NCBI GenBank assembly: GCA_016703425.1
Contig: JADJCA010000011.1
Location: 58,050 to 122,049 of the forward strand
Reading direction: 5' to 3'
Length of the DNA stretch: 64,000 nucleotides
Origin: Myxococcales bacterium
GTDB taxonomy: Bacteria; Myxococcota_A; Polyangia; Polyangiales; Polyangiaceae
The notes beneath the pieces were generated by a model. It worked only from the letters and a program-made list of their open reading frames with translations, made no database searches and was not told the DNA's origin. This document shows positions 7,368 to 48,108 of the stretch, piece after piece. Numbering within the stretch: position 1 is the first letter of the stretch; each line of letters begins with the position of its first letter. The position numbers were made by a program, and so were the translations under genes.

Positions 7368-7483
7368 TCCAAGCCCGCCGGTTCGGCCTCCACCGCGAAA
7401 GCGAGGAGGCTTAGTGGGCCGGTGCGCTGGGCAAGCTTTTTGGAGGTCCAGGCGGGAGCCGGTTAGACTGGGGAACGAATGGA

Positions 7484-9119: not shown

Positions 9120-9279
9120 CCGCTCGCCCCCCCCCGGCTCGCTGGCCTGAACGGATCGTCAGCCCCGGGTACGTCAGTTCGTGGACGCGGGGTCCCAGAT
9201 TTCCATACGCTACGGGTTCTGCGGCAGTGGGCGCCGCGACAACCGTTCGCCGGCGGCGAAGAGGAAGAACCTAGGGGCG

Positions 9280-12200: not shown

Positions 12201-12630
12201 CCAACCCGTGCCTCCCGCGCCAGCGTCCTCGCAGTCGCTGCCCCCGGTTGTACGGACCTCCCACGACGAGCCTCGCTCCTCGAAGCCGCAGCCGCCGCGC
12301 CCCGGGCCGCCACCACCTCCGGTGCCCAGCGCGCCGAGGCTCGGTCCGCCGCCGCTACCGGCGGCGGCGCGCAAGGCCGAGCCGCCCAAGGTTTGCGGCC
12401 CCCAGACCGCCGGCGCCGCCGGCTCCGGCCCGACCGCAAGCGCCGCGGCCCGCAGCGCCCGAGCCGACCGTCGAGTCGACGCTTCACGACTACAAGATCG
12501 CCGACACACCCCCTCCCCCTCCCCAAACGCCGCCCGCGCCCGCGCCAGCGCCAGCGCCGGAGGTCGTGGACTACAGCAAGCCCGCGTTCATTCTCCACGA
12601 AGCGTTGACGCGCGCCGCCGGCGACGCTGA
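9280..12630 (+). CDS. hybrid sensor histidine kinase: pseudo-receiver, Pro-rich linker, REC, coiled coil, HisKA, HATPase_c, REC, REC, long Pro/Ala-rich linker. Frame-1 tail after about 12400 looks non-coding.
   Basis: H-box [19 protein letters not shown] plus N/G-box (HATPase). Three canonical receivers with DD...D...K. The N-terminal receiver-like domain has Glu at the phospho-Asp position. The C-terminal frame-1 stretch (about 12400-12630) has low GC3, while frame +1 is coding there. Confidence 0.75.
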
Positions 12631-12919
12631 CCTCTTGAAGGAGGCCATTGGCATTCTCCTCGAAGATGCGCCGCTACAGCTTCGCACGCTGCGCGACGCC
12701 TACGGCGCGCACGACCTGCAGACCGTGCAGCGCCTCGCCCACGGCCTCCAGGGCGCCGTGGCGAACCTCGGCGCCAGCTCCATGGCCGCTGGCCTTCGCG
12801 ATCTCTCACACGCGGCCCGCGACAAGCGTGAGGACGCCATCGACCCGCTGCTCGATCGCGCACACCGCGACTGGACCGCTCTTGAACGAGAGCTTCGCAC
12901 CTGGGTGGCGAGTCCATGA
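12566..12919 (+). CDS. Hpt (histidine phosphotransfer) domain, either the true C-terminus of the hybrid HK via a +1 frame change near 12380-12440, or a stand-alone Hpt protein from an internal GTG
   Basis: Frame-2 ORF 12248-12919 is coding (high GC3) from about 12420. The Pro-rich linker continues in this frame and ends in an Hpt-like four-helix region ([34 protein letters not shown]). The GGAGG before GTG 12566 is only 2 nt away, a poor RBS, which favours the frameshift reading. Confidence 0.5.
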
Positions 12920-13860
12920 AGGTGCTTGTCGTCGAGGACGACGTCACCACACGCCTCCTGCTCAGCGGCACGCTGCGGAAGTGGGGCTACGAGGTGACGA
13001 CGTGCGCCGACGGCGAAGACGCTTGGGAGGAGGTGAAGAAGCGAGAGACTCGCCTCGTCATCACCGACTGGGAGATGCCTCGCCTCGACGGCGCAGGACT
13101 CTGCAAACGGATTCGTACGCAGCTCGGCTCGACCTACGTCTACGTGCTTCTTTTGACGAACTACAAAGACGCCGATCACATCGTGCAAGGGCTGAGCGCC
13201 GGCGCCGACGATTTCATCTCCAAGCCCTTCAATCCGCTCGAACTGCAAGCGCGGATGGCGGTCGGTCAGCGCATCCTGCTCTTGCAGGATGACTTGGTGG
13301 AGAAGCACCGCGAGCTCGAACGCCTCAATCAACAACTGGCGCGCATCGCGGCGACCGACGCGCTCACGCAACTCGGCAACCGCCGAAGCTTCGATGAAGC
13401 GCTCGCGCGAGCCCACTCGCTCGCGCTTCGTCACGGCCGCGCCTACGGCGTCCTGATGGCCGACCTCGATCACTTCAAGAGCATCAACGATCGCTTCGGC
13501 CACGCCATCGGCGACAAGGTCCTCGCAGAAGTGTCGGCCGCCTTTCGCAACGCCACGCGGAGCGAAGACGAGCTCTTTCGCTACGGTGGCGAGGAGATCG
13601 TCATCCTCACGCGGGAGCAGACGACGGCGGGCCTCACCTCCTTATGCGATCGGCTGACGACGGCGGCCGCGGCCGTGAGGATCACGGCGGCGGACCACGT
13701 GCCGGTCGCGATCACGGTGAGCGTGGGCGCTGCGCTCTACGACGGCCGAGAGCGCGTAGAAGGCGTCGCGCTGGTGGGCCGCGCCGACGACGCGCTCTAT
13801 CAAGCCAAACACGCGGGGCGAAACCGCTTCGTCCTCTGGGACGAGACGCCCGCGACTTAG
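12916..13860 (+). CDS. response regulator with receiver and GGDEF domains (PleD-like diguanylate cyclase)
   Basis: REC (VLVVEDD..D..MP..DG..KPF) followed by GGDEF with an RYGGEEI active-site motif. Its ATG overlaps the Hpt stop (ATGA at 12916-12919). Confidence 0.85.
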   Translation: MKVLVVEDDVTTRLLLSGTLRKWGYEVTTCADGEDAWEEVKKRETRLVITDWEMPRLDGAGLCKRIRTQLGSTYVYVLLLTNYKDADHIVQGLSAGADDFISKPFNPLELQARMAVGQRILLLQDDLVEKHRELERLNQQLARIAATDALTQLGNRRSFDEALARAHSLALRHGRAYGVLMADLDHFKSINDRFGHAIGDKVLAEVSAAFRNATRSEDELFRYGGEEIVILTREQTTAGLTSLCDRLTTAAAAVRITAADHVPVAITVSVGAALYDGRERVEGVALVGRADDALYQAKHAGRNRFVLWDETPAT

Positions 13861-13916: not shown

Positions 13917-15161
13917 TTAACTGCCGAGCTTCGCCTGGAGACTGCGGAGTCGGTCGATCAGGAGATCGTAGGTCGCGGGGCGCTTGCCGGCCTCTTGGTC
14001 GAGCATCCAGCGCACGACGTCGACGAACTCGTGCGCGTAGCCCGGGATCGTGTCGGGAATGGTGACCGGCTCGTAGCGCGCCTTGCGGCCCGTGGTGCGG
14101 TCGCGCTCCGTCGAGAAGGGAGGCTTGCCGGTGGCGCCGTGCAGCATCGTGACGCCCAACGCGTAGACGTCGACCCGGAAGTCGACCTTGTCAGGCTGGG
14201 AGACGGCTTCCGGCGCCATGTAGCCGCGCGTGCCGACGACGGTGCGGCGCACGCGATCGAGGGAGCTCGGATCGATCGTCGTCGGAGTGGCGAGACCGAG
14301 GTCGACGATCTTGGTCATGCCGTCTTTGGCGAGCATGATGTTCGCGGGCTTGATGTCCCGGTGGATGAGGCCTTGCGCCAGGCCCGCCTTGAGCCCCACG
14401 GCCACGTCGAGCGCGACGCGCAGGAGCGCTGCGGGAGGCAGCGGACCGTCGCTGGAGATCGCCTTCGAGAGCGTTCGGCCCTCGATGTATTCCATGACGA
14501 CGTAGGTGATGTTCTTCGTGTGCGTGACATCGAAGACGCGAACGACGTTGGGGTGATTGATCTTCGCCGCGAAGCGAGCCTCTTCGCAGAGGCGGTCGGC
14601 CAGCTCGGGGTTCTTTCGCACGACCTTCGAGCGAAGAAGCTTCAAGGCCACAGGCATGTGCAAGAGCAGGTGGGTCGCGCGGAAGACTGCGGCGAAGCCC
14701 CCGGTCCCGAGGAGCTCTTCGATGCGGTACTTGTCGATGATCGCGCCGACGCCGGGGAGGTCCGTCTCGACGGGCGCGACCGCGGTCCGGGGGCGCGTCT
14801 TGTCGGTTGCCTTCTTCTTTCGACGCGCCAGCGATGCGATGCTCTTGGGCCGCATCTCCGGCGTAACCGGCGGCGCTGCCGTGAGCACCTCCGCCGGCGA
14901 GTAGGTCGACGCGGGCAGCACGAAGGCATCGGTCGGCAGGACAGGGTCGATGGGCAGGAGCGCCGCGAGCGTCACCTCACGCGGGCGGACAATGTCCGAA
15001 CGAAAGAGACCGTGCAGGCTCCCCTCGATCCGTTGCGACTCGTCGACGGACTCGCCGAGCGACTCCACCGAGTCTTGGCCGCCGGACTCTTGCTCCGTGC
15101 CCAGCGGCTGCGAGACGCGTTCGATGGCTGCCCGGGCGCCGCCTTGAATGTTCGGATCCAT
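13917..15161 (-). CDS. Hanks-type Ser/Thr protein kinase (last gene of the che operon)
   Basis: Track ORF trimmed to the ATG at 15161 with a GGAGGAGCGAGG RBS. Kinase subdomains present: GxGxxAxV (GTGGFAAV), VALK, HRDIKPAN, DLG, GTRGYMAPE. Confidence 0.8.
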   Translation of the reverse strand: MDPNIQGGARAAIERVSQPLGTEQESGGQDSVESLGESVDESQRIEGSLHGLFRSDIVRPREVTLAALLPIDPVLPTDAFVLPASTYSPAEVLTAAPPVTPEMRPKSIASLARRKKKATDKTRPRTAVAPVETDLPGVGAIIDKYRIEELLGTGGFAAVFRATHLLLHMPVALKLLRSKVVRKNPELADRLCEEARFAAKINHPNVVRVFDVTHTKNITYVVMEYIEGRTLSKAISSDGPLPPAALLRVALDVAVGLKAGLAQGLIHRDIKPANIMLAKDGMTKIVDLGLATPTTIDPSSLDRVRRTVVGTRGYMAPEAVSQPDKVDFRVDVYALGVTMLHGATGKPPFSTERDRTTGRKARYEPVTIPDTIPGYAHEFVDVVRWMLDQEAGKRPATYDLLIDRLRSLQAKLGS

Positions 15162-15220
15162 GCCTCGCTCCTCCGGCCTGGCAGGCGGCACCCCGCCCGC
15201 GCCATTTCCGCCTTGCTGAC

Positions 15221-16711
15221 TCACGTCTTCGCTCCGCTCGCGCCGCGACCCCAGAGCTTGATGCCGTCGACCAGCAGGTTGCGAAGCTCGGCGTGGCCGA
15301 CGCCAAGCTCCCCTTGCACCACGCGCACGGCGGAGCCGCCGTCCTGGATGGCCGACAGCTCGCTCACGTTGCCCTCGAGCGCCGCATTGCCAACCCACAG
15401 CGTCGACGGCGGGATGAAGTGGCGGAGCCAGCCTTCAAGGTCGACGCGCGCCTTGGTGCCCACGGCGAGGAAGTCACCGTCGGGCGGCGCGATGAGCACG
15501 AACGAAGGGACGCGGTGGAGGTGCGCCCGAAACGCGTTGGGGTTGCGCACGTCGACGAGCACGATGTCGACGAGGCGTTCGTGACGCAGGAAGAAGGAGA
15601 GGCCGAAGGCCTTGCTCTTCTCGGACAAGCTCCCCAAGACCCACTTCTCCGTCGGCGGCGCTGCGATCGAGAGCATCGCGGAGACACCGGCGGCAAGATC
15701 GGCGAGAAAGAGCACGTGCAGTCGGTCGCGTCCGCCTTCGACGCGAGTCCACTTGGCGAGCTCTTCGTAGGTGAAGAGGCGCAGCTCACCGAGGGTGAAG
15801 CCATCGCCGACGCCGAGCTCGAACTGCGCCGCAACGAGGCGCGTTGGCGTGAGCGGTGACACGAGCTCGGCGTCGCCGCCAAGCGAGGGGCGCGGCGGTC
15901 GATGCGTCGTGCGCACGGGAGCGCCGGTGAGCTGTTGCGAGTGACGTTCCGTGTCGAGGAGGCGAGCGCCCTCCATGATGAGGCCCGTGACGGACTCCTC
16001 GATGGTGAAGGAGTCGACGGTCACTTCGCAGGGCCCGGGCAAGAACTCGAACTGTCCTTGGCCCTCGGCCATGAGCTTGAAGAACGCCTCGGAGCCCACG
16101 AGATTTCCGTAGACCGCGTGAACGACGCGGCCTTCGTTGAAGAAGACTTCGCCGACGGCGCGGCGGGTGCCAACGGCGAGCGTGCCGGTTCGTCGCCCCA
16201 TCTCGAGGATAACGACGAGGTCAGGGAACGCGATGGCGGAGAAGTCGCCGGCGAGGTTGTAGGCGCGGCGTCGCCATGCGTCGCGGACGCGCCGCTGGCG
16301 CCCAATTTGCGCGTCGACGCGGGCCACGAGCTCCGCCTGATCGCAGGGCTTGACGAGGAAGTCGTCGGCGCCGGCACGCAGTGCGAGCACCTTCGTGGTC
16401 ACGCGACTGTCGGCGGAGAGGAAGACGACAGGGATGTTCCGGAGGCGGCTCTCTTGCGCCAAGCGGCGCACGAGCTGAACCCCGTTCATATCGCGGAGGT
16501 CGGTCTCGGTGATGATGAGGTCGACGAGCTGATTGCGGAGGATATCGATGGCGCCGGCGGCGTCTTCGACAGTCTCAACGGCAAAATTTCCCGCCTTCGA
16601 AAGGGCGCCTTCGACGAAACGTCTTGAGACACCGTCAGGATCCACGACGAGGACGGTCGCCGGGCCATCCTCAGGCACCGGCGAATTGTCAGGGGCTGAC
16701 GACCTCGTCAT
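15221..16711 (-). CDS. response regulator with N-terminal receiver, PATAN/DUF4388 domain, and a C-terminal domain of unknown function
   Basis: REC with a phospho-Asp context (VDLIITETDLRDMNG) then a DUF4388-like segment (DLVVILEMGRRTGTLAVGTRRAVGEVFFNEGRVVHAVYG...GSEAFFKLM). Confidence 0.65.
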   Translation of the reverse strand: MTRSSAPDNSPVPEDGPATVLVVDPDGVSRRFVEGALSKAGNFAVETVEDAAGAIDILRNQLVDLIITETDLRDMNGVQLVRRLAQESRLRNIPVVFLSADSRVTTKVLALRAGADDFLVKPCDQAELVARVDAQIGRQRRVRDAWRRRAYNLAGDFSAIAFPDLVVILEMGRRTGTLAVGTRRAVGEVFFNEGRVVHAVYGNLVGSEAFFKLMAEGQGQFEFLPGPCEVTVDSFTIEESVTGLIMEGARLLDTERHSQQLTGAPVRTTHRPPRPSLGGDAELVSPLTPTRLVAAQFELGVGDGFTLGELRLFTYEELAKWTRVEGGRDRLHVLFLADLAAGVSAMLSIAAPPTEKWVLGSLSEKSKAFGLSFFLRHERLVDIVLVDVRNPNAFRAHLHRVPSFVLIAPPDGDFLAVGTKARVDLEGWLRHFIPPSTLWVGNAALEGNVSELSAIQDGGSAVRVVQGELGVGHAELRNLLVDGIKLWGRGASGAKT

Positions 16712-16718: not shown

Positions 16719-17309
16719 TTATCTCTCTTTTCCCTTCTGGCGTGCTCCGGAGAGAATCGCGGCCGAGGCGCTAAGCTCGCTCGTCGTCCAAAGACGACTG
16801 GGGTCGAGGACCAAGCCGACGGCAGACTGAGTTCCCGGCCCTGCTCGATCGCCGAGCTGGGAGGACGGGAAGCCGTGGCTTAGCGCTTGGGGCCGAATAC
16901 GGAACACACCAGGGGGCAGCGGAATCGTCGCACCGAGCGGAGCTACGAACAAGCATTCTCCGGTGCCGACAGCCATGGGCACCTCTGAGCCGAGGTGGGG
17001 TACACGGAGGAGAACCCAGGCGATTTGCGGGATATCCAGCTCCAGCAGCGCGCCGAGCTGCCACGACGCGTAACGTTGACCAGCGACCTCAAGGAGGCCC
17101 GGAGACAGCTCTTCTGCATCAGCCTCGGCCGGAACGATGAGCGTCTGCGTTTGGATCGGCAAAACGAGGCGATCAATCCACTGGGCGGGCAGCGCGCCGA
17201 CAAAGTCCCCACACTGGAGGAAGACGCACAGCTCAGCCTTATCCGCGTCGGGTTGGGCGCCGCCCCAAGTCGAGAGGCTTGCGCCACCGCTGGAGGTCGA
17301 CGCCGTCAT
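16719..17309 (-). CDS. CheW-like coupling protein (divergent)
   Basis: About 190 aa, CheW-like core by position and weak motif similarity. ATG overlaps the cheA stop (ATGA). Confidence 0.55.
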   Translation of the reverse strand: MTASTSSGGASLSTWGGAQPDADKAELCVFLQCGDFVGALPAQWIDRLVLPIQTQTLIVPAEADAEELSPGLLEVAGQRYASWQLGALLELDIPQIAWVLLRVPHLGSEVPMAVGTGECLFVAPLGATIPLPPGVFRIRPQALSHGFPSSQLGDRAGPGTQSAVGLVLDPSRLWTTSELSASAAILSGARQKGKER

Positions 17310-20300
17310 TGCGAGTCACCCGAGTCTTGCGAGTGCGACTGCGAGTCATCACCAGCGCCCTGAGCGCCGACGGGCTTCTTCTTCGGTCCGTACTTCTCGA
17401 GAGCGCCCTCGAGCTGTCGGGCGTTGAAGGGCTTGGTCAGGTAGTCGGTGCACCCGAGCGCGCGCGCCTGATCTTGGTGCTTCTGCCCCGAGCGGCTCGA
17501 CACGACGATGATCGGGAGGTCTTGGTACGCCGGCAGGAACCGGAGCTCACGAATGAGATCGTAGCCGTGCATGCGCGGCATCTCGAGGTCCGTGAAGATG
17601 AGGTCGTAGTGACCTTCGCGAAGCTTCGACATGGCGTCGAGACCGTCGACGGCGGTGGTGACATCGGTGCCGAGGTTCGTGAGCTCCTTCTCGGCGATCT
17701 TGCGGACCGAGAGCGAGTCGTCGACGAAGAGGACGCGCACCTTGCGTTGGACCGCGGGCATCCGAAGCTGGGTGGCCTTCTTCGGGCGCTCGAGGCTCGT
17801 CGTCGTCGGCTGGAAGCGCGGACCGCCACCCGAGAGTGCGCGGCCTGCGTGGGCTTCGACGACGCCGGGGATGTCGAGGATGAGCGAGAGCTCGCCGGTA
17901 CCGCGAATCGTGACGCCGGCGAGCACCGGGTGACCCGTGAGCAGGTCGCCGAGGCTCTTTACGACGATCTCCTCTTGGCCGATCACGGCATCGACCTGGA
18001 GCATCAATCGCTGGTCACCGACGCGAAGCACGATGACAGGCCCGCGCTTCTCGGCGCTGGAGCGATCCGTGACGCCGAAGAGCTCGTCCATCGTGAGCAC
18101 CGAGACGTAGGTCTCGTCGAGCTTCACGCGACGAATGCCCGCCGACTCGACGATCACGCCTTCCTCCGCATCGAGGATGTGCTGCGCGAAGTAGAGCGGG
18201 ATGGCGTACGAGCGACCGCGACTCGACACCAAGAGGGCCTTGGTGATGGCGAGCGTGAGCGGCAAGGTGACCAAGAACGCGGTGCCCTTACCCGGCATGG
18301 TGTCGACGCGAATCGAACCGTTGAGACGGTCGACGGCGCGACGAACCACGTTGCCGCCGACACCGCGGCCGGCGACGTTACCAACGGTCGCCTTGGTGCT
18401 GAGGCCCGCGGCGAACACGAGGTCCTTGACGACTTGGTCGTTGACCGAGGTCTCGGCGGGAATGACGCCCATCTGCACGCCCTTGGCATGCAGCGCGGCG
18501 AGGTCGAGGCCGTTGCCGTCGTCGCGAACTTCAAGGACGATCTGCCCCGACTCTTGCCGTGCGGCGAGGGTGAGCGTTCCCGTCTCCTTCTTGCCGGTGG
18601 CCTGACGCGCGTTGGGCGCTTCGATGCCGTGCACCACGGCGTTGCGCACCAGGTGCAGCATCGGACCGAAGAGCGCGTCGGCGATGGTCTTGTCGATGTT
18701 GACGTCTTCACCGGAGGTGACGACGCGAACCTCTTTGCCTTCGCGGGCCGCGGCGTCGCGGACCGGGAGGCGGAGGCGCTGGAAGAGGAACTCGAGGGGA
18801 ACCATGCGAGCGCGGGTGACCTCGCTCTGGATGCCCGTCACGATGCTGCCGTGCGCTTCCGAGTCGGCCGCGAAGGCGGAGAGCTCGCGATAGAGCTGGC
18901 CGTACATTTCGTTGAAGTCGTTGCTCATCTCCGCGAGGCTTCGCGCGAGGACGTTGACGTCGTCGTAGCGGTCGAGCTCGGCGTCGCTGAAGGCGCCCAT
19001 CTGATCTTCCGAGGTGAGCTTCGCGAGCGCTGTGGCAGCGCCCTCCGCAGGCCGGTTCGCCAGTTGGGCGACCGTCTGCTGGTAGGCCGCGTGCATCTCG
19101 CCGGGGCGGCGATAGGTGAACTCGTGTTCCTCTCGGAACGACTCGACCGTATCCATGAGGCGACGACGGCTGCGTCCGAGCTCGAGTTGCAGTTGCTTCA
19201 AGACGTCGATGCGGCTCATGAGCCGCGAACGGCTGACGACGAGCTCGCCGGCGAGGTTCATGAGGGCGTCGAGGCGCTCTGTTGAAACGCGGATGAAGCG
19301 ACGATCGGCCGCGTCGGCTGGCGCGCCCGGCGCGAGCGACTCGGCGTCGCCGCTGCCCCCACCGGTGTCGACGTTGATGATGCTGACGCTGGAACCACCG
19401 GTGTGGCTGACGGGCTCGTAGGCCGCCTTGCTGCCGGCGAGGACGTTCCCGATGCGCGACTCGACGCGCGCGATGGAGGTCTCGACATAACCGTCGGCGG
19501 CCTGCCGGAGGTTGCGGCGAACGTCCTGCTGCACCTCCAAGAGGAAGGTCGCGACGGCCTTCATCGACGGAAGGATCGTCGCCTCGATGAGGCCTTCGAG
19601 GAAGGTCTCGACGCGGTGCAGGATCGCTCCCGTGGGACCGAGACCGATGGTGTTCACGGCGCCCTTGAGCGTGTGCGTAAGGCGCATCAAGGTCTCGATG
19701 GCGGCCTTAGGCTGGTTCGTCTCCTCGAGGGCGAGGATGGCGCGATCGAGCTGATCGAGCAGCTCCGAACACTCCTGGTTGAAGGCGTCGACGAGGTCCG
19801 GCTCGGCGGGTAGCTGAACGCGCTCGCGCACGACGGCTTCCTTCACGCGAGGCGCCTTGGCGGGCTTCTTCGCCGCGGCGCTGGAGAACGACGGCTCCTC
19901 GGCACGCTCCGACTGGAGCAGCTGGGTCACGCGAGCGAGGCCGCGCTGCAGAACGGCGGCCGAGGTCTTGTCGGCGCTCGCGAGCGACTGAAGGCGGGCC
20001 GCCTCCGTCGCGATGGCGTCCTCGGCGACGACGAGCGCCGAACCCTTGAGCCGGTGGAACAACTTGCCCAACTCACCGCGAACTTCGCGCGCGCGAGGGT
20101 CGGCGGCCTTGGCGAGCTCGTCCAAGTATTGGCCCGCTCGCTCGCAGAGCTCCTTGGCCTCTTCCATGAAGAACTTCTTCGCGTCACCGACTTCGCTCGG
20201 CGGCTCAGCGGCCGACGCGGGCTCCTTCGGGGACTTCGCGACGTCGAGCTCGGGGAGGTTGGCGAGCTTGAGCAAGCGACGCGTGTCGCCGAGGAGGTTC

Positions 20301-22318
20301 TTGAGGAATTGCTCGTCGACGTCGGTGCCCGATTCGAGGACCTCCTCCATGCGCTTCTGGAGGCTCTCGGCGATCTTGCTGACTTCCTTCAGGCCGACCG
20401 TCGCGGCCGCGCCCTTGAGCGTGTGATAGATGCGCTCGACGTGGTCGGCGCTGGCCACGTTGGTCGGGTCTGCGAGGAGCGCTTGCAAGTGCCCCTGGAG
20501 CGCGACGACGAGCTCGCGGGCTTCCTCTTGGAAGATCGCCTGAAGCTCCTTGTCGATCTCTGCCGACTCTTCGCCGCTCGGCGACTCCTCGGCGAAGGAG
20601 AACTCCGCGCCTTCCTCGCCGCTCGGGCTGTCACCTGACATCGGCGGCGGCGAAAGCGTGATGGGCTTGAGGTCGACCTTGCGAAGGAGGCTGTTGGACT
20701 CGAGGGCGAAGGCCGCCAGCGTGTCTTCCCCGGCATCGAGGCGCCCGTCGGCGACGTCCTTCATCATCTTCGAGCAATCGGCGGCGGCGCTCGCGTATTG
20801 CGGGAGGTCGTTCTTCTGCGCGAGGACGTTGAGCTCGCCAAACATGCGCTCCAGCTTGCGCGCCGCCGAAAGGTCCGTGGCATCGACCGAGAGCGCGCTC
20901 ACGCACTCCTGCACGCCGTAGAGGATCCCTTTGGCTTGCTCCAAGAATTCGCGATGCTGCACGGCGTGAATCGGCTCCGGCCCCGTCGCGCGCGACGGCG
21001 GCGGCCCCGGCTCTTCTTCGGCGAACGAGAACTCTTCGCCGCGGCTCGTGGCGACGGCGATCTCCGGCAGGTTCACCTGACGCAAGATTCGGTTCGTGTC
21101 GCGGGCAACTTGCTCGAGGAACCCGTGTGTCACGGGCGTCGTGTGCTCGACGACCCCCATCATGCGCGCCTGGAGCTCGGAGGCGGCTTCGCTCACGTTG
21201 CTGAGACCGGCAAACGAGGCGCTCCCCTTGAGGGTGTGAAAAATGCGCTCGACGCTCTTCGACGACGACTCGTCCTTGGGGTTCTCGAGCAACTTCTGCA
21301 GGTAGCCCTGCAGCGGCACCAACAGGTCGCGAGCCTCGTCGTGGAACATCGTGTCGAGCTCGCCCTCCGGGACGACCTCGAGCTCTTCGCTCGGGAGGTC
21401 GGTCACTTCTTCGGCGGGCGCTGCCACGTACATGACGCCGAGGCGCGGCGCGCCGGCCATGTGGAGCATGCGCTCGAGGTCGCGGATCTGCTGTTCGATG
21501 AACGCCGGCGTGATGCTCGTCGAACCGATGATGACACCCTCGAAGTTGCGGCGAAGCTGCTCCGAGAGCTTGTGAACCTCAGGGAAGCCGGCGGCGCCAG
21601 CGCCACCCTTGATGCCGTGGAGGATGCGCTCGATGTGACCCGCGGCGACCATTTTGTCGGCATCATCGATGAACGCTTGCACGTGGCGAGCGAGCGCTTC
21701 GCCGGACTCGCGGACCTCTTCACGGAAGATGACCTGAAGCTCTTCGTCGAAGACGGGCGCCTGCGACGGCGGGGCGCTGACGTCGTTCGGGTCGACGGTC
21801 GAGGCGGGGGCCGACGCGGCGAGGCTCGCGCGAACCTCGGCGTCGTAGGCGGGCCCTTCGACCTTCTCGGCGAACGGTGCGCCGACGACGTCGGCGAGCT
21901 TGTCGCGAAACGCGAGGAGGAGCCACTCGGCCTCGTCGCTGTCGTGCTTCAGCTCGAGGTCGAGCATGGCGCGCATCTCGGTGGCGCCTTCCGCGCAATG
22001 TTGCGCGATGCGCCGCGCCTCCTTCGCGTGAGCCTCGATGGCGCGGACCTCTTCAAGGCCCTTGCCGGCCAGATGCTCGAGCATCCGGGCGCTCTCGGCC
22101 AGCGAGTTCGCCTGAACGAGGCTCGAGGTGCCGCTGACGGCATGCGCGAAGTCGCCGACCTTCTCAAAGAGCGGCGCGCCGTTGATGTCCTTCAGCGACG
22201 TCTGGTCGAGCGACGGGGAGGCGAGAAGCGCTCGTGCCGCTTCTTCGATTCGACCCAGGAAGTTCGTGATGTCCGTCGTGAACGTCTCGCGGACATCGTC
22301 GATTGAGAATCCTGACAT
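17306..22318 (-). CDS. ChpA-like multi-Hpt CheA histidine kinase with a C-terminal receiver (5 Hpt, dimerisation, HATPase, CheW-like, REC)
   Basis: 1670 aa. Five Hpt boxes (LHGIKGGAG, FHTLKGSASFAG, YHTLKGAAATVG, FHRLKGSALVV, THTLKGAVNTIG). CheA ATPase N, G1 and G2 boxes (HLVRNAVVHGIE, RDDGNGLD, GRGVGG). CheW-like domain. C-terminal REC (RVLFVDDS...DLIFTDLEMPRMHGYDL...KPF). Confidence 0.9.
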   Translation of the reverse strand: MSGFSIDDVRETFTTDITNFLGRIEEAARALLASPSLDQTSLKDINGAPLFEKVGDFAHAVSGTSSLVQANSLAESARMLEHLAGKGLEEVRAIEAHAKEARRIAQHCAEGATEMRAMLDLELKHDSDEAEWLLLAFRDKLADVVGAPFAEKVEGPAYDAEVRASLAASAPASTVDPNDVSAPPSQAPVFDEELQVIFREEVRESGEALARHVQAFIDDADKMVAAGHIERILHGIKGGAGAAGFPEVHKLSEQLRRNFEGVIIGSTSITPAFIEQQIRDLERMLHMAGAPRLGVMYVAAPAEEVTDLPSEELEVVPEGELDTMFHDEARDLLVPLQGYLQKLLENPKDESSSKSVERIFHTLKGSASFAGLSNVSEAASELQARMMGVVEHTTPVTHGFLEQVARDTNRILRQVNLPEIAVATSRGEEFSFAEEEPGPPPSRATGPEPIHAVQHREFLEQAKGILYGVQECVSALSVDATDLSAARKLERMFGELNVLAQKNDLPQYASAAADCSKMMKDVADGRLDAGEDTLAAFALESNSLLRKVDLKPITLSPPPMSGDSPSGEEGAEFSFAEESPSGEESAEIDKELQAIFQEEARELVVALQGHLQALLADPTNVASADHVERIYHTLKGAAATVGLKEVSKIAESLQKRMEEVLESGTDVDEQFLKNLLGDTRRLLKLANLPELDVAKSPKEPASAAEPPSEVGDAKKFFMEEAKELCERAGQYLDELAKAADPRAREVRGELGKLFHRLKGSALVVAEDAIATEAARLQSLASADKTSAAVLQRGLARVTQLLQSERAEEPSFSSAAAKKPAKAPRVKEAVVRERVQLPAEPDLVDAFNQECSELLDQLDRAILALEETNQPKAAIETLMRLTHTLKGAVNTIGLGPTGAILHRVETFLEGLIEATILPSMKAVATFLLEVQQDVRRNLRQAADGYVETSIARVESRIGNVLAGSKAAYEPVSHTGGSSVSIINVDTGGGSGDAESLAPGAPADAADRRFIRVSTERLDALMNLAGELVVSRSRLMSRIDVLKQLQLELGRSRRRLMDTVESFREEHEFTYRRPGEMHAAYQQTVAQLANRPAEGAATALAKLTSEDQMGAFSDAELDRYDDVNVLARSLAEMSNDFNEMYGQLYRELSAFAADSEAHGSIVTGIQSEVTRARMVPLEFLFQRLRLPVRDAAAREGKEVRVVTSGEDVNIDKTIADALFGPMLHLVRNAVVHGIEAPNARQATGKKETGTLTLAARQESGQIVLEVRDDGNGLDLAALHAKGVQMGVIPAETSVNDQVVKDLVFAAGLSTKATVGNVAGRGVGGNVVRRAVDRLNGSIRVDTMPGKGTAFLVTLPLTLAITKALLVSSRGRSYAIPLYFAQHILDAEEGVIVESAGIRRVKLDETYVSVLTMDELFGVTDRSSAEKRGPVIVLRVGDQRLMLQVDAVIGQEEIVVKSLGDLLTGHPVLAGVTIRGTGELSLILDIPGVVEAHAGRALSGGGPRFQPTTTSLERPKKATQLRMPAVQRKVRVLFVDDSLSVRKIAEKELTNLGTDVTTAVDGLDAMSKLREGHYDLIFTDLEMPRMHGYDLIRELRFLPAYQDLPIIVVSSRSGQKHQDQARALGCTDYLTKPFNARQLEGALEKYGPKKKPVGAQGAGDDSQSHSQDSGDSQ

Positions 22319-22388: not shown

Positions 22389-24665
22389 TCAGGCCACCTT
22401 GAACTGACGGATGTTCTGCGTGATTTGCTCGGTGAGCGAGATGAGCTCGCCGACCGTGGCCACGGTTCCGTCAGCGCCCTTCTGCGTCTGCTGGGCGATG
22501 GCGGTGACCTCTTCCATCGTGCGCACCATGGTCTGCGTGCCCTCGACCTGCGCCTTCGCGACGGTAGCGATGTGAGCGACGAGGCCGGCCGACTCGGTGG
22601 ACACCTGGCGAATCTTGCCAAGCGACACGCCGGCTTCGGCGACCAGCTGCGACTCCTGCTCAACGACCTGCGTCTGCCGCTCGATGGCTTCGGCGGTTTC
22701 CTTCGTCTCGGCGTGGATGGCCTTGACGAGCTTGTCGATTTCCTTGGTGGCGGCGGCCGTTCGTTCGGCGAGCTTGCGCACCTCTTCGGCAACGACGTGG
22801 AAGCCGCGGCCGTGTTCGCCGGCGAGCGCGGCTTCGATGGCGGCGTTCAGCGCGAGGAGGTTGGTCTTCTCGCTGATGCGGCTGATGGTGGCGACGATGC
22901 CCGTGATCTCGAGGGACCGATCGCCGAGAATCTTCATGCGCTTGGCACCGGCCTGAACGCTTGCGCGAAGCTCGTTCATCGTCGAGATGACGTTCTCGAC
23001 GCGCTCGGCGCCTTCGATGGCTGACGCCTCGGTGCGCTGTGCGGCGGTCGCCGCCGTGAGGGCGTCCTGGCTGACGCGAGAGTTCTCTTCGCTCATCTGC
23101 ATGACGAGCTGGCGAGCGGTGAGGATGTCCTTCGCTTGGTTGGTGGCGCCGTTGGCCATGCCCTTCGCGAGGCTCGAGATCTCGACGACGGCGCGGTTGG
23201 AACGCTCCAGCTGTTGCTGGATGCGACCGATAAGGTTCTGCATGCTCTCGAGGAGGTTGTTGAAGCCGTCGGCCACGTTACCGAGGGCTCCTTCCGTCAC
23301 GCGGGCGCGGACCGTGAGGTTTCCGTCGGCGGCGTCCGAGACGACCTGCAGCAAGTCGAAGATGTTCTCTTGGAGCTGGCGGTTCTCGTCTTCAACGCGG
23401 TTCTTGAGCGTACGAGCTTCGACGAGGGCGTCGTTGATCTGGCCGTATTGCGTGCCGATCTGACCGAGCTCGTCTTGCGCGTCGAGGCGGAGTTGCTCTT
23501 CCATGGTGCCGGCGATCATGCGGCCCGTCGCGGAGCCGAGGACGGCGATGGAGCGCTGAACCGAGAGGAAGAAGCCTACGAACAAGTACGCGAGCGCGAG
23601 GGCCGCGAAGACGGCGATGCCGAGGGCGAGGTTTCGGTCGAAGGTATAGCCGTCGACGCGGTCTTCGATGAGGGCGTCGAGCTGGGGACCGATGCGGCGC
23701 CAGAGCTCAACGGTCTGCAGCGCGTTCTCAAGCGTCGCCGTGACGATGGGGCGGAGCGCGTCCTGGTTCGGCTTTTCTTTCGCCGTGAGGAACTTGGTGC
23801 GGACCATCTCGGCGTGCTGGTTGAGCTTGTCGAGGGACTTCTCGGCGAGCTTCAACGTCTGCGCGACGTTTTGACCGCGCTTCTTGGCGGCTTCGCGGAA
23901 GCCGGCAAAGTTGGTCTTGTCGAGCTCCGTCGTTTGATTGAGGAACTGCTTGTAGATACCGGCGAGTTCGACGTTTCGTTCCGCTTCGGCCTGCTCGTCG
24001 GGCTGCGGCCTCATGCCGAGCGTCGCCGAGCGCGCGATGCTGTCGACGAGCGACGGCATCTTGCGGAGGTAGGCGTCCATCAAGAAGTAGCTCTCGAGCT
24101 CTTGGTCGAGGACGAGGTTGGAGTTCGAGCCGGCTTGGTTGAGTACCAGGTCGATCATCAAAGAGGCGATGTCGGCGTGGTACTTGTCGGCCTCGTCGGC
24201 CGTGGCGAGCTTCTGCTTCTGGAGCCCCTCCCAGAGGGTCTTCGCCTGCTTCCACTTCTTCGTGGTGCGAAGCTCGTCGCCGACCTCGGCATCCTGCTCG
24301 TCGACCTTCTTGACGGCCTTGTTGGCCTCTTCCGTGGCCGCCGTGACGTCGCCGCTAAAGCCCGTCAAGCCCAACGCCACGCCGACCGAGGCCACGCGCC
24401 GTCGCTCGATTTGGTAGAGGAACTCGCGCGCCGGCTCGACCCAGCGAACGCCGCTTCGCTCCTTCTCGTTGAACTCGATGCGCTCTTGCGAGATGGCGTT
24501 CTGGAGGAAGAGGACGTAGCCGAGCGGGACCGCTACGAGCACGCCGATGATCAAGAATTTCCAGACGTATTTCAGTCTGTTCATCAAGGCCATGGAAGGC
24601 TGAAAGAGGAACGAGACCATCCCCCACACCTGTCCGAACCCGCTCGGCGTCCCGCCAGCATTCAT
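22389..24665 (-). CDS. methyl-accepting chemotaxis protein, PilJ-like (TM1, about 290-aa periplasmic region, TM2, HAMP, MCP signalling domain)
   Basis: Highly conserved MCP signalling hairpin ([36 protein letters not shown]). Two TM segments flank a large periplasmic domain. Strong AGGAGAAG RBS before ATG 24665. Confidence 0.85.
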
Positions 24666-24820: not shown

Positions 24821-25438
24821 CTACTGATATTTCAGTTGCTCCAGTCGCTGCAAAAGAGCGGCTGTGTCGAGCACCGTGACGAAGAGGCCTCCACGGTTGT
24901 CGGCCTCCAAGAATCCCTGGACGAGCGGGTTGTCGCCGCCGGCTTTCGGCCGGCTGAGGACGCCCGGTCCGATCTCGAGGACGATCTCCATCCGGTCGAT
25001 GAGGACGCCCGCCATGAGGTTGCTCGCTCGAATCACGAGGACCGGGTACGGCTTTCCGTCACCGACCGTGATTTCCGAGCGTTTGCTGGCAGGGATCTCG
25101 AGAATTTCAGCCAGGTCGATCAGCGCCAGCGGTGTTCCGCGGAAGTTGAACAGGCCGAGCATGGCCGACTTGGACAGCGGCACGGGAGCCAATTGGTCGA
25201 CTGTCACCAGCTCGCCAACGAGGCCGATGTCGAGGGCGAAGCAGTCGCCGCAGAGCCAGAACGCGCACACGCGCTGGACCCCGCCGCCCTTGTTGGCAGC
25301 GCCTTGTGATCCCCCCGACCCGCCGGACCCCTTGCCGCTGCTCTGACCGCTGCCGGAACGGCCGGAGGAGCCCGAGCCGCTTCCGCCTTTCGAGGAGCCG
25401 CGCGAGCGGGAGGAACCTTTGGAAGACTCAGTTGCCAT
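24821..25438 (-). CDS. CheW-like protein with a 50-aa Gly/Ser-rich N-terminal extension
   Basis: CheW core (LVTVDQLAPVPLS...GLFNFRGTPLALIDLAEIL...VLVIRASNLMAGVLIDRMEIV). GAAGGGA RBS. Confidence 0.8.
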   Translation of the reverse strand: MATESSKGSSRSRGSSKGGSGSGSSGRSGSGQSSGKGSGGSGGSQGAANKGGGVQRVCAFWLCGDCFALDIGLVGELVTVDQLAPVPLSKSAMLGLFNFRGTPLALIDLAEILEIPASKRSEITVGDGKPYPVLVIRASNLMAGVLIDRMEIVLEIGPGVLSRPKAGGDNPLVQGFLEADNRGGLFVTVLDTAALLQRLEQLKYQ

Positions 25439-25457: not shown

Positions 25458-25820
25458 TCAGCCGACGTAACGCTTGATGATTGCTTGGAGCGTGTCGGGG
25501 GTGAACGGCTTCGCGACGTGGTCGTCGGCGCCTTGTTTCTGGCCCCAGAAGCGGTCGCTGTCGCCGCCCTTGGACGTCACGAGGACGACCGGAATCTTGG
25601 AGGTGTCGGGGTCGGTCTTGAGCTTGCGGCAGGCGTGAAAGCCGTTCATCGACGGCATCACGACGTCGAGGAAGATGAGCTGCGGCTTCACCTCTTTGGC
25701 CCGGGCGAGCGCCTCGCTGCCGTCGGTGGCGTATTCAGGCTTGTGACCGGACGACGTCACGACGCGGCCGATGAGCTCGCGGTCGGTCTGTACGTCGTCA
25801 ACGATGAGAATGGTTCCCAT
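25458..25820 (-). CDS. single-domain CheY-like response regulator (PilG/PilH-like)
   Basis: 120 aa REC: ILIVDD, D at LIFLDVVMPSMNG, T, KPF. Confidence 0.85.
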   Translation of the reverse strand: MGTILIVDDVQTDRELIGRVVTSSGHKPEYATDGSEALARAKEVKPQLIFLDVVMPSMNGFHACRKLKTDPDTSKIPVVLVTSKGGDSDRFWGQKQGADDHVAKPFTPDTLQAIIKRYVG

Positions 25821-25848: not shown

Positions 25849-27624
25849 TCAGGCGACGAGCAAGCGCTCTAGGTCAACATACGTAATGGGCTTTGTCAGT
25901 ACGGAATCAAAACCGGCGGCCGAGAGCTCGTCGACCTTCTCGCGAGAAGGCGTGTCGAGCACCGCGACGACCGCCAGATGGGAGAGATCGTCGGCCTTTC
26001 GGACCTGGGCCACGGCGCGTACCGCAGCGTCGCCGGCGGCGTCCGCGTTGAGGATGACCATCCGCGGCCTCTCCCTGAGGATCGCGGCGAAGATGTCTTT
26101 GTCGGAGTCGAAGGCCACGAGCGACAGGGGCTCGGCGCGGTTCTGAAGCAGCTTGGTGAGCGGCGCCTGGAACCCTTCGACGTCGGGCTCGAGGATCATG
26201 ACGGCGCTGGGTCGCTTGGTCTCGGCGGCGACCGCTGCGACGTGCCGCTCGCGGATGAGCCCCACGTGGAGGAGCCTCGCGACGATGTGGGCGGCCTCGC
26301 GCGCCGGTAGGCCGCTGCGGTTCGTCAGCGTCTGAACGCTGTTGCCACCACCCACGAGGCTGAGAATGCGGCGCTCCTCGGCGGAGAGCTCGAAGTCGCG
26401 AAGGCGGCGGCTGAAGTTCTCGGCGCGCTCGAAGACCGCCTCGGTCTTGGGCAGACGCGCCTCGACGGTCGCGCGGCCAGAAGGCCGACGGAACAGCTCG
26501 AGCTCGAGCTGGTCGACCGAGATGCGAAGGCCGTAGGCGTCGACGTAAGAAGGGTGCGTCGGCCGCTCGCGCCAGAAAAAGCGCACCGAGCTCGCCTCGA
26601 TGATGTCGAGGAGCGAGCGCTTTCCCTGCCTTTGAAGCAACGGCGCGAGATCGGTCGTCGGCAGGTAGCCGCGCTCGGCGAGGGTCACGAAGAACGGCTT
26701 GCCGCTCGAGCGCTGGTCGGCTTCTGCGCGCTCGCGCACGTCGGCGGCGAGGGCCGGCAGCGCGACCTTCGCGTCGCGGCAGTAGTCGATGGGATCGTGG
26801 CTCGTGGCGAGGAGGACTTCGCCGCGGCGAAGGTACGCGACGACCTTGCGGCTGCCGGCGGCGAGCCAAAGCTCGCCCGTTTGACCCGAGGCACGGATCA
26901 TCTTCACGATGTCCGTGGGGGACCAGCCGGTGGCCTTGCCGGAGAGCGACCCCTCGCCCTCTTCGACCGGCTCCGCGGGGCCAGCGCCGCCGAGCACTTC
27001 TTTGAAGACCGGCACGAGGGCGTCGAGCACTTGTCCGACGAGCTCGGGCGTCAAAAACTTTCGCGCAAAGTAGGGCGCCGGTTGGTTGGCGCCGAGCTGC
27101 GCCATCCAGTCGGGGATGCGCGCAAACTGCGGCCGCAGCGACGCGAAGAGCGACTTCGCCGCCGTCTCCTTCTGGCGAAAGGAGAAGAGCGAGACGCTGG
27201 CCGGCGCCGGCGGACGCGACGGCCTCAGCGACGCCGTCGCCGCTTGCGCCTTCTTGTCGAGCACCGCTTGCACACGCGTGACGATGTCGTCGGGCGAAAA
27301 CGGCTTCGAGACGTAGTCGACCTGCGCGCGCATCCCCTTGAAGAGCTCGCGGACGTTCTCGTCCTTCGCCGTCATCAAGATGATCGGTACGTTGGCCGTG
27401 CGCGCATCCTGACTAAGCCGCTGCGCGACATCGATGCCACGCATGTCGGGGAGGACGAAGTCGAGGAGAATGAGCTCGGGGATGCCGTGGTGATGCGTCG
27501 CCTTGAGCAGGCCCTCATGGCCCGTCGTGGCGTAGTCGATGGTGGCATCGATGTTCTTGAGCGCCAGGCCGACGGCCTTGCGAACGGTGAGGCTGTCGTC
27601 GATGACGAGGAGACGCGACGTCAT
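25849..27624 (-). CDS. multidomain response regulator: receiver, PATAN/DUF4388-like, middle domain, C-terminal pseudo-receiver
   Basis: Trimmed to ATG 27624, which overlaps the upstream stop (ATGA). N-terminal REC (LLVIDDSLTV...ELILLDFVLPDMRG...SKPF). DUF4388-like segment (GQTGELWLAAGSRKVVAYLRRGEVLLATSHD). C-terminal REC-like fold without a clear acid pocket. Confidence 0.6.
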   Translation of the reverse strand: MTSRLLVIDDSLTVRKAVGLALKNIDATIDYATTGHEGLLKATHHHGIPELILLDFVLPDMRGIDVAQRLSQDARTANVPIILMTAKDENVRELFKGMRAQVDYVSKPFSPDDIVTRVQAVLDKKAQAATASLRPSRPPAPASVSLFSFRQKETAAKSLFASLRPQFARIPDWMAQLGANQPAPYFARKFLTPELVGQVLDALVPVFKEVLGGAGPAEPVEEGEGSLSGKATGWSPTDIVKMIRASGQTGELWLAAGSRKVVAYLRRGEVLLATSHDPIDYCRDAKVALPALAADVRERAEADQRSSGKPFFVTLAERGYLPTTDLAPLLQRQGKRSLLDIIEASSVRFFWRERPTHPSYVDAYGLRISVDQLELELFRRPSGRATVEARLPKTEAVFERAENFSRRLRDFELSAEERRILSLVGGGNSVQTLTNRSGLPAREAAHIVARLLHVGLIRERHVAAVAAETKRPSAVMILEPDVEGFQAPLTKLLQNRAEPLSLVAFDSDKDIFAAILRERPRMVILNADAAGDAAVRAVAQVRKADDLSHLAVVAVLDTPSREKVDELSAAGFDSVLTKPITYVDLERLLVA

Positions 27625-28676
27625 CAGCGCACCTCCGCGACAATGCCAGAGACCTTGCGCGGGCCTTGGCGAAGGCGCCCGGTAAGCAAATCGAGGACCG
27701 CCGGCCCACCTTCGGCGACGGCCTTGGCGATATCGTCTTCCGCGCCCGACGCGCCCGTCAGCGCGACGACAACGTCGCCGCTCGCGGCTCCAAAACGCAT
27801 CATGAGGGAACCCGTCTTTCCGAAAGCGTTGGAGAGGTTGTACGCGTTGGGCAGTCGCATCGGCGAAAGGATGCGAAGCGGCACTTCGGGCCCCGCCGGC
27901 CAATAGACGATCCAGTCTTCACCGTCGGGCGCGAGGTGCAGCGCGGCGTAGCTGCCGCCGAGCATGTCACGGAGCTTGCGCTCCTTCTCGTCGTCGGGCT
28001 CTTCGCGGCGCATGGCGTCGGCCACGCGGGCCGCTTCCGCGTCGACGAGCAACGGTGCGCCCGGGTCAACGCGAAGGAGAGCCGTGAGCCCCTCGGTCGT
28101 GCCTTGCACAACGAGCGGCAACGAATCGCTGGGGGTGTCACCGCCACACGTCATGGCGCCGACCCAACCGTTGGCGTGTTGACGCTCGCTCGTGCGGACG
28201 GGACCGTGGCGGGCGTCGGCGGGCCCGGCACCGAGGAGGCTCCCGGTGGCGCTCACAGTGTTGGCGGTGAGGGCTCGAATGCGCGCGGCGATGCGCCCCG
28301 CAGACAGCGGCGGAGAGAGCAGCGTCACGCGGCCGCTCTGAATCGTCACCGTCGGTCGCACGAGCGGCTCTTCGCAGAGGAGCAAGAGCGAGATCGTCGG
28401 CATGCTGCGCGTCATGAGCTCGACGATGTCGTCGGGCACGCGACGCTCACCAGCGGCGAGCCACGCGACGAGCAGCGCCGGCGGCGGAGCACCGGTGGCC
28501 GCGAGCCACGAGACGAGCTGCGTGGCCGGTGCAGCGGTTGCGTCGCCAGTCCAAAGGAAACGGCGGACGCCCGCTGCTTCACACGCGCCGACGATGTCGC
28601 CGAGCAACGACTCGGGCATGCGGTGCGATGCCACCACGACGGTGGACTTGCTCTCTTCGGGCGATTGATTGGTCAC
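27624..28676 (-). CDS. hypothetical protein in che operon
   Basis: High GC3. GTG 28676 lies 2 nt after the CheW stop. Alternative ATG 28619. No recognised motifs. Confidence 0.4.
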   Translation of the reverse strand: MTNQSPEESKSTVVVASHRMPESLLGDIVGACEAAGVRRFLWTGDATAAPATQLVSWLAATGAPPPALLVAWLAAGERRVPDDIVELMTRSMPTISLLLLCEEPLVRPTVTIQSGRVTLLSPPLSAGRIAARIRALTANTVSATGSLLGAGPADARHGPVRTSERQHANGWVGAMTCGGDTPSDSLPLVVQGTTEGLTALLRVDPGAPLLVDAEAARVADAMRREEPDDEKERKLRDMLGGSYAALHLAPDGEDWIVYWPAGPEVPLRILSPMRLPNAYNLSNAFGKTGSLMMRFGAASGDVVVALTGASGAEDDIAKAVAEGGPAVLDLLTGRLRQGPRKVSGIVAEVR

Positions 28677-28677
28677 G

Positions 28678-29145
28678 TCAGACCCCCACGAAATCGCTTG
28701 AACCGACGAGGTCCTTGAGGAGCGTCGGAACGTCGAGCCAACCGATGGAACGGTTGTCGATGGTTCGAGCCGCCGAGATCCACGGCGGCAACTTGTCACT
28801 GCCCGGTTGGTCGCGCTTCGCGCGCACGGTCGCTTGAACCATTCCAACGACGCTCAAGACTTCGAGCGCCCATCCGATGTCGGACTCGTCGGCGCTGACG
28901 ACGATGCCCTCTGTCTCCTTGCGACGTGGAGCGTCGGGAGCGCGATCACCGATGAGCGCAACGGAGATGATGATGCGCCCCTGATAGACGGCGAGACCAC
29001 CGACCCAACGACGCGCCAACTGCAGCGGCGTCGTTTCGTACTGGATGATTTGATAGACGGAGTCGACGGGAACAGCGACGCGAGCTCTCCCGATGGAGAA
29101 CTCGAGACCCGTCTGGATCGGCGCCTCGGTCGACGTGTCGCTCAT
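28678..29145 (-). CDS. CheW-like coupling protein (first gene of che operon)
   Basis: 155 aa CheW fold (EFSIGRARVAVPVDSVYQIIQ...GLAVYQGRIIISVAL). AAGGAG about 18 nt upstream. Confidence 0.7.
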   Translation of the reverse strand: MSDTSTEAPIQTGLEFSIGRARVAVPVDSVYQIIQYETTPLQLARRWVGGLAVYQGRIIISVALIGDRAPDAPRRKETEGIVVSADESDIGWALEVLSVVGMVQATVRAKRDQPGSDKLPPWISAARTIDNRSIGWLDVPTLLKDLVGSSDFVGV

Positions 29146-48106: not shown

Positions 48107-48108
48107 GA

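Follow-up and report, generated by a model that had tools for sequence, protein, structure and literature searches.

Multi-Hpt kinases of the CheA family, in which several histidine phosphotransfer (Hpt) domains precede the catalytic core, have been surveyed by Berry, Andrianova and Zhulin (2023), who found at least two Hpt domains in 18% of CheAs and a C-terminal receiver (REC) in more than 90% of those. Such multi-Hpt CheAs belong in 93% of cases to the type IV pilus (Tfp) or alternative cellular function (ACF) classes, and more than half have at least five copies, with a maximum of 14 (PMC10782961). Here we describe a protein of this kind encoded by 64,000 nucleotides of a Myxococcales bacterium genome (GenBank assembly GCA_016703425.1, contig JADJCA010000011.1, positions 58,050 to 122,049 of the forward strand), a stretch that we call the window and to which all coordinates below refer. 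Its chpA-like gene (17306-22318, minus strand) probably encodes a ChpA-type hybrid CheA serving as the central kinase of a ten-gene Myxococcota chemosensory cluster in an uncultured, Polyangiaceae-like soil myxobacterium. The multi-Hpt CheA-REC architecture is already catalogued and this protein is one more example of it; the only mildly new points are a conserved linker motif and a probable lineage-specific amplification of one module type.

In ChpA of Pseudomonas aeruginosa only some of the phosphotransfer (Xpt) domains are phosphorylated and others lack the histidine (reviewed in PMC12632253, PMC10782961 and PMC10519157, citing Silversmith 2016). Phosphate flows among its Hpt domains and its receiver, which is thought to be a sink or shuttle (PMC12632253, PMC10782961, PMC10519157). 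His-less Hpt domains are known in both ChpA and CheA3, and extended dimerization hairpins were described for the Tfp CheAs by Berry et al. (PMC10782961). The cyanobacterial Tax1 (Pix) system has the PATAN regulator PixG as its output and requires the receiver of the kinase PixL, and a Synechocystis PATAN domain binds the pilus motor proteins PilB/PilC (PMC11181946).

A CheA core preceded by seven Hpt-fold modules

The chpA-like gene is one open reading frame (ORF) of 1670 amino acids (aa), as seen in the ORF list and translation, and lies in DNA of approximately 67% G+C; alignment shows that its start, MSGFSIDDVR, coincides with the N-termini of its homologues. From the ORF list, Pfam and structure matches, the product consists of seven Hpt-fold modules followed by the P3, P4 and P5 domains and a receiver.

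The motif H-x-[LI]-K-G occurs five times in the protein (H234, H361, H632, H755 and H882), whereas 20,000 shuffles gave a mean of 0.017 and a maximum of 2 occurrences, so the observation is real and far from chance. A first-pass annotation, made from the letters of the window without database searches, had counted five Hpt boxes; although these five are present, Pfam, hidden Markov models (HMMs) and AlphaFold2 bring the true count to seven modules, since seven stretches, each about 100 aa long, can be aligned in register, six with the His and one without it. Pfam annotation of the whole protein places Hpt in six stretches (147.7 bits in total), and the conserved His is present in all five of the boxes claimed, as that annotation had stated. 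The modules were also scanned singly, the Pfam Hpt gathering score being 24.6 bits. Four modules are canonical Hpt domains: M2 (21455-21763, aa 186-288) with H234 in HGIKGGA and 35.1 bits, M3 (21071-21379, aa 314-416) with H361 in HTLKGSA and 38.3 bits, M5 (20258-20569, aa 584-687) with H632 in HTLKGAA and 45.7 bits, and M6 (19910-20197, aa 708-803) with H755 in HRLKGSA and 27.9 bits. They are joined by the kinase-proximal Hpt, M7 (19499-19819, aa 834-940), with H882 in HTLKGAV and 41.3 bits, the fifth module with a canonical H-x-[LI]-K-G; these features, like all others of the gene, are on the minus strand. The longer signature H-x-[LI]-K-G-[SGA]-[AS], attributed earlier to all five boxes, fits only four of them, as the box of H882 ends in Val, and the spacing between boxes is 127, 271, 123 and 127 aa and not the 130-200 aa that had been given, with M4 lying in the 271-aa gap.

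The two remaining modules depart from the canonical form. M1 (21998-22297, aa 8-107), which the first-pass annotation had overlooked, is an N-terminal variant Hpt with H59 in HAVSGTS, which scanned alone gives 23.7 bits (E 5.8e-5) against Pfam Hpt and which reaches 72.9 bits against an HMM built from distant relatives. Across the clade of its homologues no copy lacks the His and GT[ST] is conserved, with the Lys of HxxKG replaced, and M1 is a distinct, clade-wide N-terminal module type. M4 (20675-20980, aa 447-548) has no Pfam match; it is a pseudo-Hpt in which Gly494 (MFGELNVLA) stands where the other modules have His. An HMM made only of the modules of distant relatives gives it 17.8 bits (E 3e-5), compared with 7.6 bits for the best of 200 shuffles. 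An AlphaFold2 model of M4, computed from a four-sequence alignment, has five helices (pLDDT 87.6, pTM 0.79), and its best natural Foldseek matches are CheA P1 domains, led by 1tqg (TM 0.76/0.84, root-mean-square deviation 1.7 Å over 99 columns) and including 2ld6, 1i5n and 3kyi, every E-value being above 0.001. Such weak E-values are usual for small helical bundles, and the modeled match to CheA P1 is consistent with the Hpt fold, not decisive for it. In the orthologues the His column of M4 holds Glu and the C-terminal half of the module is nearly invariant, and M2, M3 and M5 show no change in their His boxes.

The single kinase core and terminal REC that the first-pass annotation had recognized behind the Hpt modules are borne out by Pfam, which gives P3, P4 and P5 in the order usual for the CheA family (H-kinase_dim, HATPase_c, CheW). 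The P3 dimerization hairpin (18779-19306, aa ~1005-1180; Pfam H-kinase_dim at 1007-1060) is followed by the P4 HATPase_c domain (18254-18658, aa 1221-1355), whose N, G1 and G2 boxes read HLVRNAVVHG, DDGNGLD and GRGVGG in the translation, by the P5 CheW-like domain (17855-18238, aa 1361-1488; 62.7 bits) and by the C-terminal receiver (17399-17734, aa 1529-1640; Response_reg, 83 bits). A PDB search matched the P3-P5 core to the solved Thermotoga maritima and Escherichia coli CheA structures with 220 bits and the receiver to CheY-like structures; the receiver residues D1533, D1534, D1577, S1607 and K1629 are invariant across the orthologues. Between its two helices the P3 hairpin has about 95 aa of inserted sequence (aa 1061-1154), and the alignment with T. 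maritima CheA resumes at aa 1155. This insertion is common to the whole clade, and P3 of gammaproteobacterial ChpA has the same length. No P2 or CheY-binding family appeared among the Pfam matches of the protein at E-values up to 1. The CheA core, with its extended P3, P4 and P5, and the C-terminal receiver are intact.

Origin of the modules and the linker motif

Resemblance between two linker peptides had earlier been read as a sign of recent internal duplication. At the protein level the module paralogues are only 10-46% or, in a second figure, 16-47% identical pairwise (46% for M3 and M5), and M2-M5 are 42-58% identical as DNA. No long direct repeat was found in the gene, the best being a 34-nt stretch of 65-79% identity around the His boxes, and a tandem-repeat search found no meaningful tandem repeat in it. 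All seven modules, together with the non-His residue in M4, are kept in four orthologues taken from independent NCBI, ENA and Logan assemblies, one of them 99% and the other three 81-84% identical. This divergence of the paralogues and retention in orthologues, together with the synonymous differences and the occurrence of the linker motif in distant clade members described below, speak against a recent duplication.

Best-hit analysis against the relatives matched M1 to their first module, found M6 orthologous to their penultimate one and equated M7 with their last (53-65% identity). M2, M3, M4 and M5 all have as best match one and the same HTLKGAA-type module of the relatives, at 46-56% identity for M5, 38-47% for M3, 30-34% for M2 and 18-31% for M4; M5 is the copy in which the amplified type is best preserved. 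More distant members of the clade, with 45-50% identity to this protein, have 4-5 modules by an HMM based on the relatives and 3-5 by Pfam. Judged from these alignments, the basic plan of the clade would comprise an N-terminal HA[IV]xGT[ST] module together with one module each of the HTLKGAA, HRLKGSA and kinase-proximal HTLKGV/A types. Because M2-M5 share a single ancestral match and the relatives have fewer modules, the four appear to derive from one ancestral module by an old four-fold amplification, specific to the lineage, that took place before the four orthologues split (dS ~0.6), and M4 would then have lost its His.

Comparison with the 84% identical orthologue gave dN/dS values of 0.039 for M7, 0.054 for M1, 0.10 for M3, 0.11 for M6, 0.19 for M2, 0.31 for M5 and 0.38 for M4. 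Constraint is thus strongest on M7 and then on M1, and M4 appears relaxed, though not free of purifying selection.

The near-duplicated linker peptides themselves do exist: EEFSFAEEEPG begins at aa 428 and AEFSFAEESPSGEE at aa 571. The first copy of the motif (EEFSFAEE, 21014-21037, aa 428-435) lies 12 aa upstream of M4 and the second (AEFSFAEE, 20585-20608, aa 571-578) upstream of M5. EFSFAE[ED] thus precedes both modules and is conserved in all four orthologues; over the 11-codon stretches starting at each motif the copies agree at 24 of 33 nucleotides, with synonymous differences. In distant relatives, related peptides (EFDFEE, EFSFEE, EIAFDD, SFRFEDD, AFSFS and others) precede modules of this same type. 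A loose form of the motif, [FY][SDAR]F, was found within 50 aa upstream of the HTLKGAA-type module in 15 of 17 relatives and in only 1 of 44 windows upstream of other modules, figures whose p-value is optimistic as the pattern was picked after the data had been seen. The strict motif was not found in 99 ChpA-like proteins of gamma- and betaproteobacteria. The EFSFAE peptide is thus a conserved linker motif carried along with the amplified module and not the mark of a recent duplication. More generally, an acidic aromatic motif, E-F-[SD]-F-[AE]-[DE], is seen 12-35 aa upstream of the amplified Hpt type.

The ten-gene cluster and its neighborhood

The chpA-like gene is the seventh of ten minus-strand genes, in the order CheW1, a protein of about 348 aa, REC-PATAN_A, CheY, CheW2, a methyl-accepting chemotaxis protein (MCP), ChpA, a CheW-like protein of 196 aa, REC-PATAN_B and a Ser/Thr kinase. 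An exact-sequence look-up of the kinase gave no record, and for comparison of the cluster we used as reference the orthologue from the closest genome, the Polyangiaceae metagenome-assembled genome (MAG) GCA_044224815.1, which is the one with 84% identity. The order of the ten genes is kept in Polyangiaceae, Kofleriaceae, Haliangiales and other Myxococcota MAGs, and Binatia and KSB3 genomes have a reduced core of the cluster.

CheW1 (28678-29145, 155 aa; Pfam CheW, 52.3 bits) is the first gene of the cluster. It is followed by the conserved protein, of about 348 aa in the orthologue (maximal ORF 27624-28847), which has no Pfam or NCBIfam match and was found in nearly all of the Myxococcota relatives. 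REC-PATAN_A (25849-27627) has 592 aa counted from Met93 of its ORF, the same length as its orthologue, and shows Pfam Response_reg and DUF4388 matches in the order REC (99-212) and then PatA_N (325-473). The single-domain CheY (25458-25820, 120 aa; Response_reg, 87.4 bits) is 58-74% identical across most Myxococcota loci. CheW2 (24821-25438, 205 aa; Pfam CheW, 68.5 bits) has a Gly/Ser-rich N-terminus, and the MCP (22389-24665, 758 aa) has, by Pfam MCPsignal and hydropathy, two predicted transmembrane helices, a periplasmic domain of about 295 aa and an MCP signaling domain.

Downstream of the kinase lies the gene of the divergent CheW-like protein (16719-17309, 196 aa), whose start overlaps the chpA stop by 4 nt and which is conserved downstream of chpA in relatives. 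It has no match in Pfam or NCBIfam; hhalign comparison of its family with the CheW2 family gave 90.5% probability (E 1.3e-6, 137 columns), and the protein appears to be a third stand-alone CheW-like protein of the cluster. REC-PATAN_B (15221-16711, 496 aa; Response_reg 20-132, DUF4388/PatA_N 154-255) keeps its position in the cluster across relatives and has D-P in place of the usual D-D acidic pair. The Ser/Thr protein kinase (13917-15434; Pfam Pkinase, 164.7 bits), with an uncertain start codon, closes the cluster, and its retention at the same position across Myxococcota relatives suggests cross-talk of Ser/Thr and His-Asp signaling.

At least five receivers had been counted in the first-pass annotation. 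Pfam supports those of CheY, the two REC-PATAN proteins and ChpA; the fifth, a pseudo-REC, is probably the C-terminus of REC-PATAN_A, where Response_reg reaches only a sub-threshold 15.9 bits and Asn occupies the phospho-Asp position. A weak DUF742 or winged-helix match stands ahead of this pseudo-receiver candidate. A matching of the number of Hpt sites to the number of receivers, also suggested earlier, did not hold up: the receiver set is unchanged in relatives that have only 3-5 Hpt modules, so the number of modules is not coupled to that of receivers.

Outside the cluster, a genuine-looking pair of mglB (Roadblock/LC7; 6849-7367, plus strand) and mglA (small GTPase; 7415-8077, plus strand) lies about 6 kb away. 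We did not use this linkage as evidence, as the closest relative and most loci lack this proximity, MglA-like genes being found near the kinase in only two of them. A three-receiver hybrid histidine kinase and a REC-GGDEF protein (9151-13860, plus strand) are convergent to the cluster and kept in the 84% relative. They are not conserved in distant relatives, where tblastn matches were receiver-domain cross-matches only. Further away the window holds unrelated neighbors between 33464 and 63280: FHA-GGDEF (33464-34537), CtaA (34521-35783), several multihaem cytochromes (35784-43508), PhoU with PstS/C/A-like transporter genes (46522-51218), an FHA sigma-54 activator (54810-56414) and a hybrid kinase (61040-63280).

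Proposed phosphate flow and comparison with known systems

The mechanism that we propose is drawn by analogy with P. aeruginosa ChpA and Synechocystis PixL; what this locus itself supplies is the parts list and its conservation. The transmembrane MCP and the CheW-like adaptors would control P4, which would phosphorylate the kinase-proximal and most constrained Hpt, M7, and perhaps M6 and M5. The C-terminal receiver may then be a sink or shuttle for phosphate, by which phosphoryl groups are redistributed to the distal M2 and M3, and different Hpt modules would feed CheY and the two REC-PATAN regulators, with the PATAN domains as the likely output to motility or polarity machinery. M4, and possibly M1, would be non-phosphorylated scaffolds. 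By this analogy the branched phosphorelay proposed in the first-pass annotation is plausible.

We also considered, as a tentative idea that we hold to be unlikely, that the linker motif and the HTLKGAA-type Hpt form cassettes acting as dedicated docking and phosphotransfer stations. The motif would recruit a specific partner, a receiver or a CheW-like protein, and so replace the missing P2, while the His-less M4, with its motif kept, would be a decoy or scaffold that tunes how much phosphate goes to CheY and how much to the two REC-PATAN outputs. If this docking role is true, E-F-[SD]-F-[AE]-[DE] may be a previously undescribed short linear motif.

Several points weigh against the proposed flow of phosphate. 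The roles of the single modules are assigned from position and conservation, the extra modules come without matching extra receivers and may add little functionally, and the REC-PATAN regulators have REC before PATAN, the reverse of the PatA type of the Tax1/Pix systems (N-terminal PATAN, C-terminal REC). No type IV pilus genes adjoin the cluster, either in the window or at the loci of three relatives, so that the output to motility or polarity machinery is a presumed one. Because M1 lacks the Lys of HxxKG, and Hpt1 of P. aeruginosa ChpA shows no phosphorylation in vitro, the number of live phosphorylation sites may lie anywhere between one and six.

The assignment to a Pil-Chp (twitching) pathway made in the first-pass annotation would make the kinase a true orthologue of the Pseudomonas Tfp-class system, driving twitching and possibly cAMP through a PilG/PilH-like pair. 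JGI annotation pipelines do name clade members "chemosensory pili system protein ChpA", the multi-Hpt and receiver architecture and the long dimerization hairpin are common to gammaproteobacterial ChpA, and most multi-Hpt CheAs are of the Tfp or ACF classes (PMC10782961). In the full-length search ChpA proteins of gamma- and betaproteobacteria also rank next after the clade, a ranking whose scores are inflated by the many Hpt and receiver matches. Similarity of the core places it neither in the Tfp class nor outside it: the core-only search and BLAST favored ChpA no more than ordinary CheA, gamma/beta ChpA reaching approximately 200-250 bits and single-Hpt CheAs approximately 228-246 bits. Core identity is 30-33% to gammaproteobacterial ChpA and, over P4-P5, 39-42% to single-Hpt CheAs, and the core appears equally distant in sequence from both. 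The regulators of the cluster are one single-domain CheY and two REC-PATAN proteins, not a PilG/PilH-like pair; PF26379, typical of the gamma/beta ChpA matches, is not recorded for the clade; and no pil, pilK/cheR or chpB/cheB gene was found in the cluster, among the Pfam-scanned ORFs of the window (a few short ORFs were not scanned) or in the clusters of three relatives with 10-kb flanks. This makes Pil-Chp orthology very unlikely and leaves the earlier assignment unsupported. The lack of adjacent pilus genes would suit an ACF-type pathway with a non-motility output such as development, exopolysaccharide or cyclic di-GMP, in which the Ser/Thr kinase, the REC-GGDEF protein and the hybrid kinase take part: multi-Hpt CheA-REC proteins are common in the ACF class too (PMC10782961), the Ser/Thr kinase is a conserved member of the cluster, and the REC-GGDEF protein and three-receiver hybrid kinase, convergent to it, are kept in the closest relative. 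We nevertheless think such an output improbable, since pilus motors or cell polarity are the targets of those PATAN regulators that have been characterized (PMC11181946, PMC10519157), PATAN proteins are genomically associated with MglB/MglA (PMC4316618), and the GGDEF and hybrid kinase neighbors are not conserved in distant relatives.

The modules themselves allow a different reading, in which only the kinase-proximal Hpt matters and the extra ones are redundant leftovers of duplication, with M2-M5 drifting. The His is gone from M4, whose dN/dS is the highest, M5 and M2 are relaxed compared with M7, and relatives with 3-5 modules have the same partner set. Yet dN/dS is well below 1 everywhere, the seven modules and both linker motifs have been retained in four orthologues over dS ~0.6, M2, M3 and M5 have unchanged His boxes in them, and M4 has a confident model and a nearly invariant C-terminal half; mere redundancy therefore seems quite unlikely. 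Faulty assembly or a very recent duplication in tandem as the source of the repeated modules, for which the visual similarity of the two linker peptides is the sole argument, is next to impossible: it is ruled out by the lack of long DNA repeats and tandem arrays, by the divergence of M2-M5 and by the same architecture in independent assemblies. A ChpA-type hybrid CheA at the center of a conserved chemosensory cluster is the reading that we prefer.

With that reading, the clade offers a natural experiment on why ChpA-type kinases carry many modules, a question open for P. aeruginosa (PMC12632253). The partners stay constant within one clade while the module number goes from 3-5 to 7 by way of one module type and its linker motif, and one copy, M4, has turned into a His-less fold that nevertheless appears to be under purifying selection. 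The cluster is a widely conserved Myxococcota chemosensory system with REC-PATAN regulators and a Ser/Thr kinase, and may interest those who study polarity and motility in myxobacteria.

FrzE of Myxococcus xanthus has a single Hpt domain and the partners FrzZ, FrzX, FrzCD, FrzF and FrzG. Like the kinase described here it is a myxobacterial CheA with a C-terminal receiver, and it serves polarity and motility with MglA/MglB (PMC4316618, PMC11181946). Compared by description, the present cluster differs in having no CheR/CheB and in its REC-PATAN regulators.

P. aeruginosa ChpA is likewise a hybrid CheA whose N-terminal part carries many phosphotransfer modules, some of them without the phospho-His (PMC12632253, PMC10782961), and shares with our protein the absence of P2, the long dimerization region, the single P4-P5 core, the C-terminal CheY-like receiver and more than one CheW-like adaptor. 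It has eight or nine modules, compared with seven here, and its His-less modules have Ser/Thr where ours has Gly/Glu. The core is only about 30-33% identical, and PF26379 is missing from the record of our clade. The partners here are CheY and two REC-PATAN proteins instead of PilG/PilH; PilK, ChpB and adjacent pil genes are absent, and a Ser/Thr kinase belongs to the cluster.

The Tax1/Pix system (PixG-PixH-PixI-PixJ-PixL) has the same gene order of PATAN regulator, CheY, CheW, MCP and multi-Hpt CheA-REC (PMC11181946). It too is without CheR/CheB, and cyanobacterial Tfp CheAs have an extended dimerization domain as does our protein (PMC11181946, PMC10782961). It differs in that two REC-PATAN regulators flank the cluster here, that PixL has two Hpt domains as opposed to seven Hpt-fold modules, and that our MCP has a periplasmic domain and not photosensory GAF domains; an extra CheW-like protein, the 348-aa protein and the Ser/Thr kinase are further differences, as is the myxobacterial host. 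The protein fits the pattern of the survey by Berry et al. with nothing categorical to set it apart, although the module types and the acidic F-x-F linker motif of this Myxococcota clade are not described there. Taken as a whole, the gene set is closest to the cyanobacterial Tax/Pix systems, which it resembles more than it does Pseudomonas Pil-Chp.

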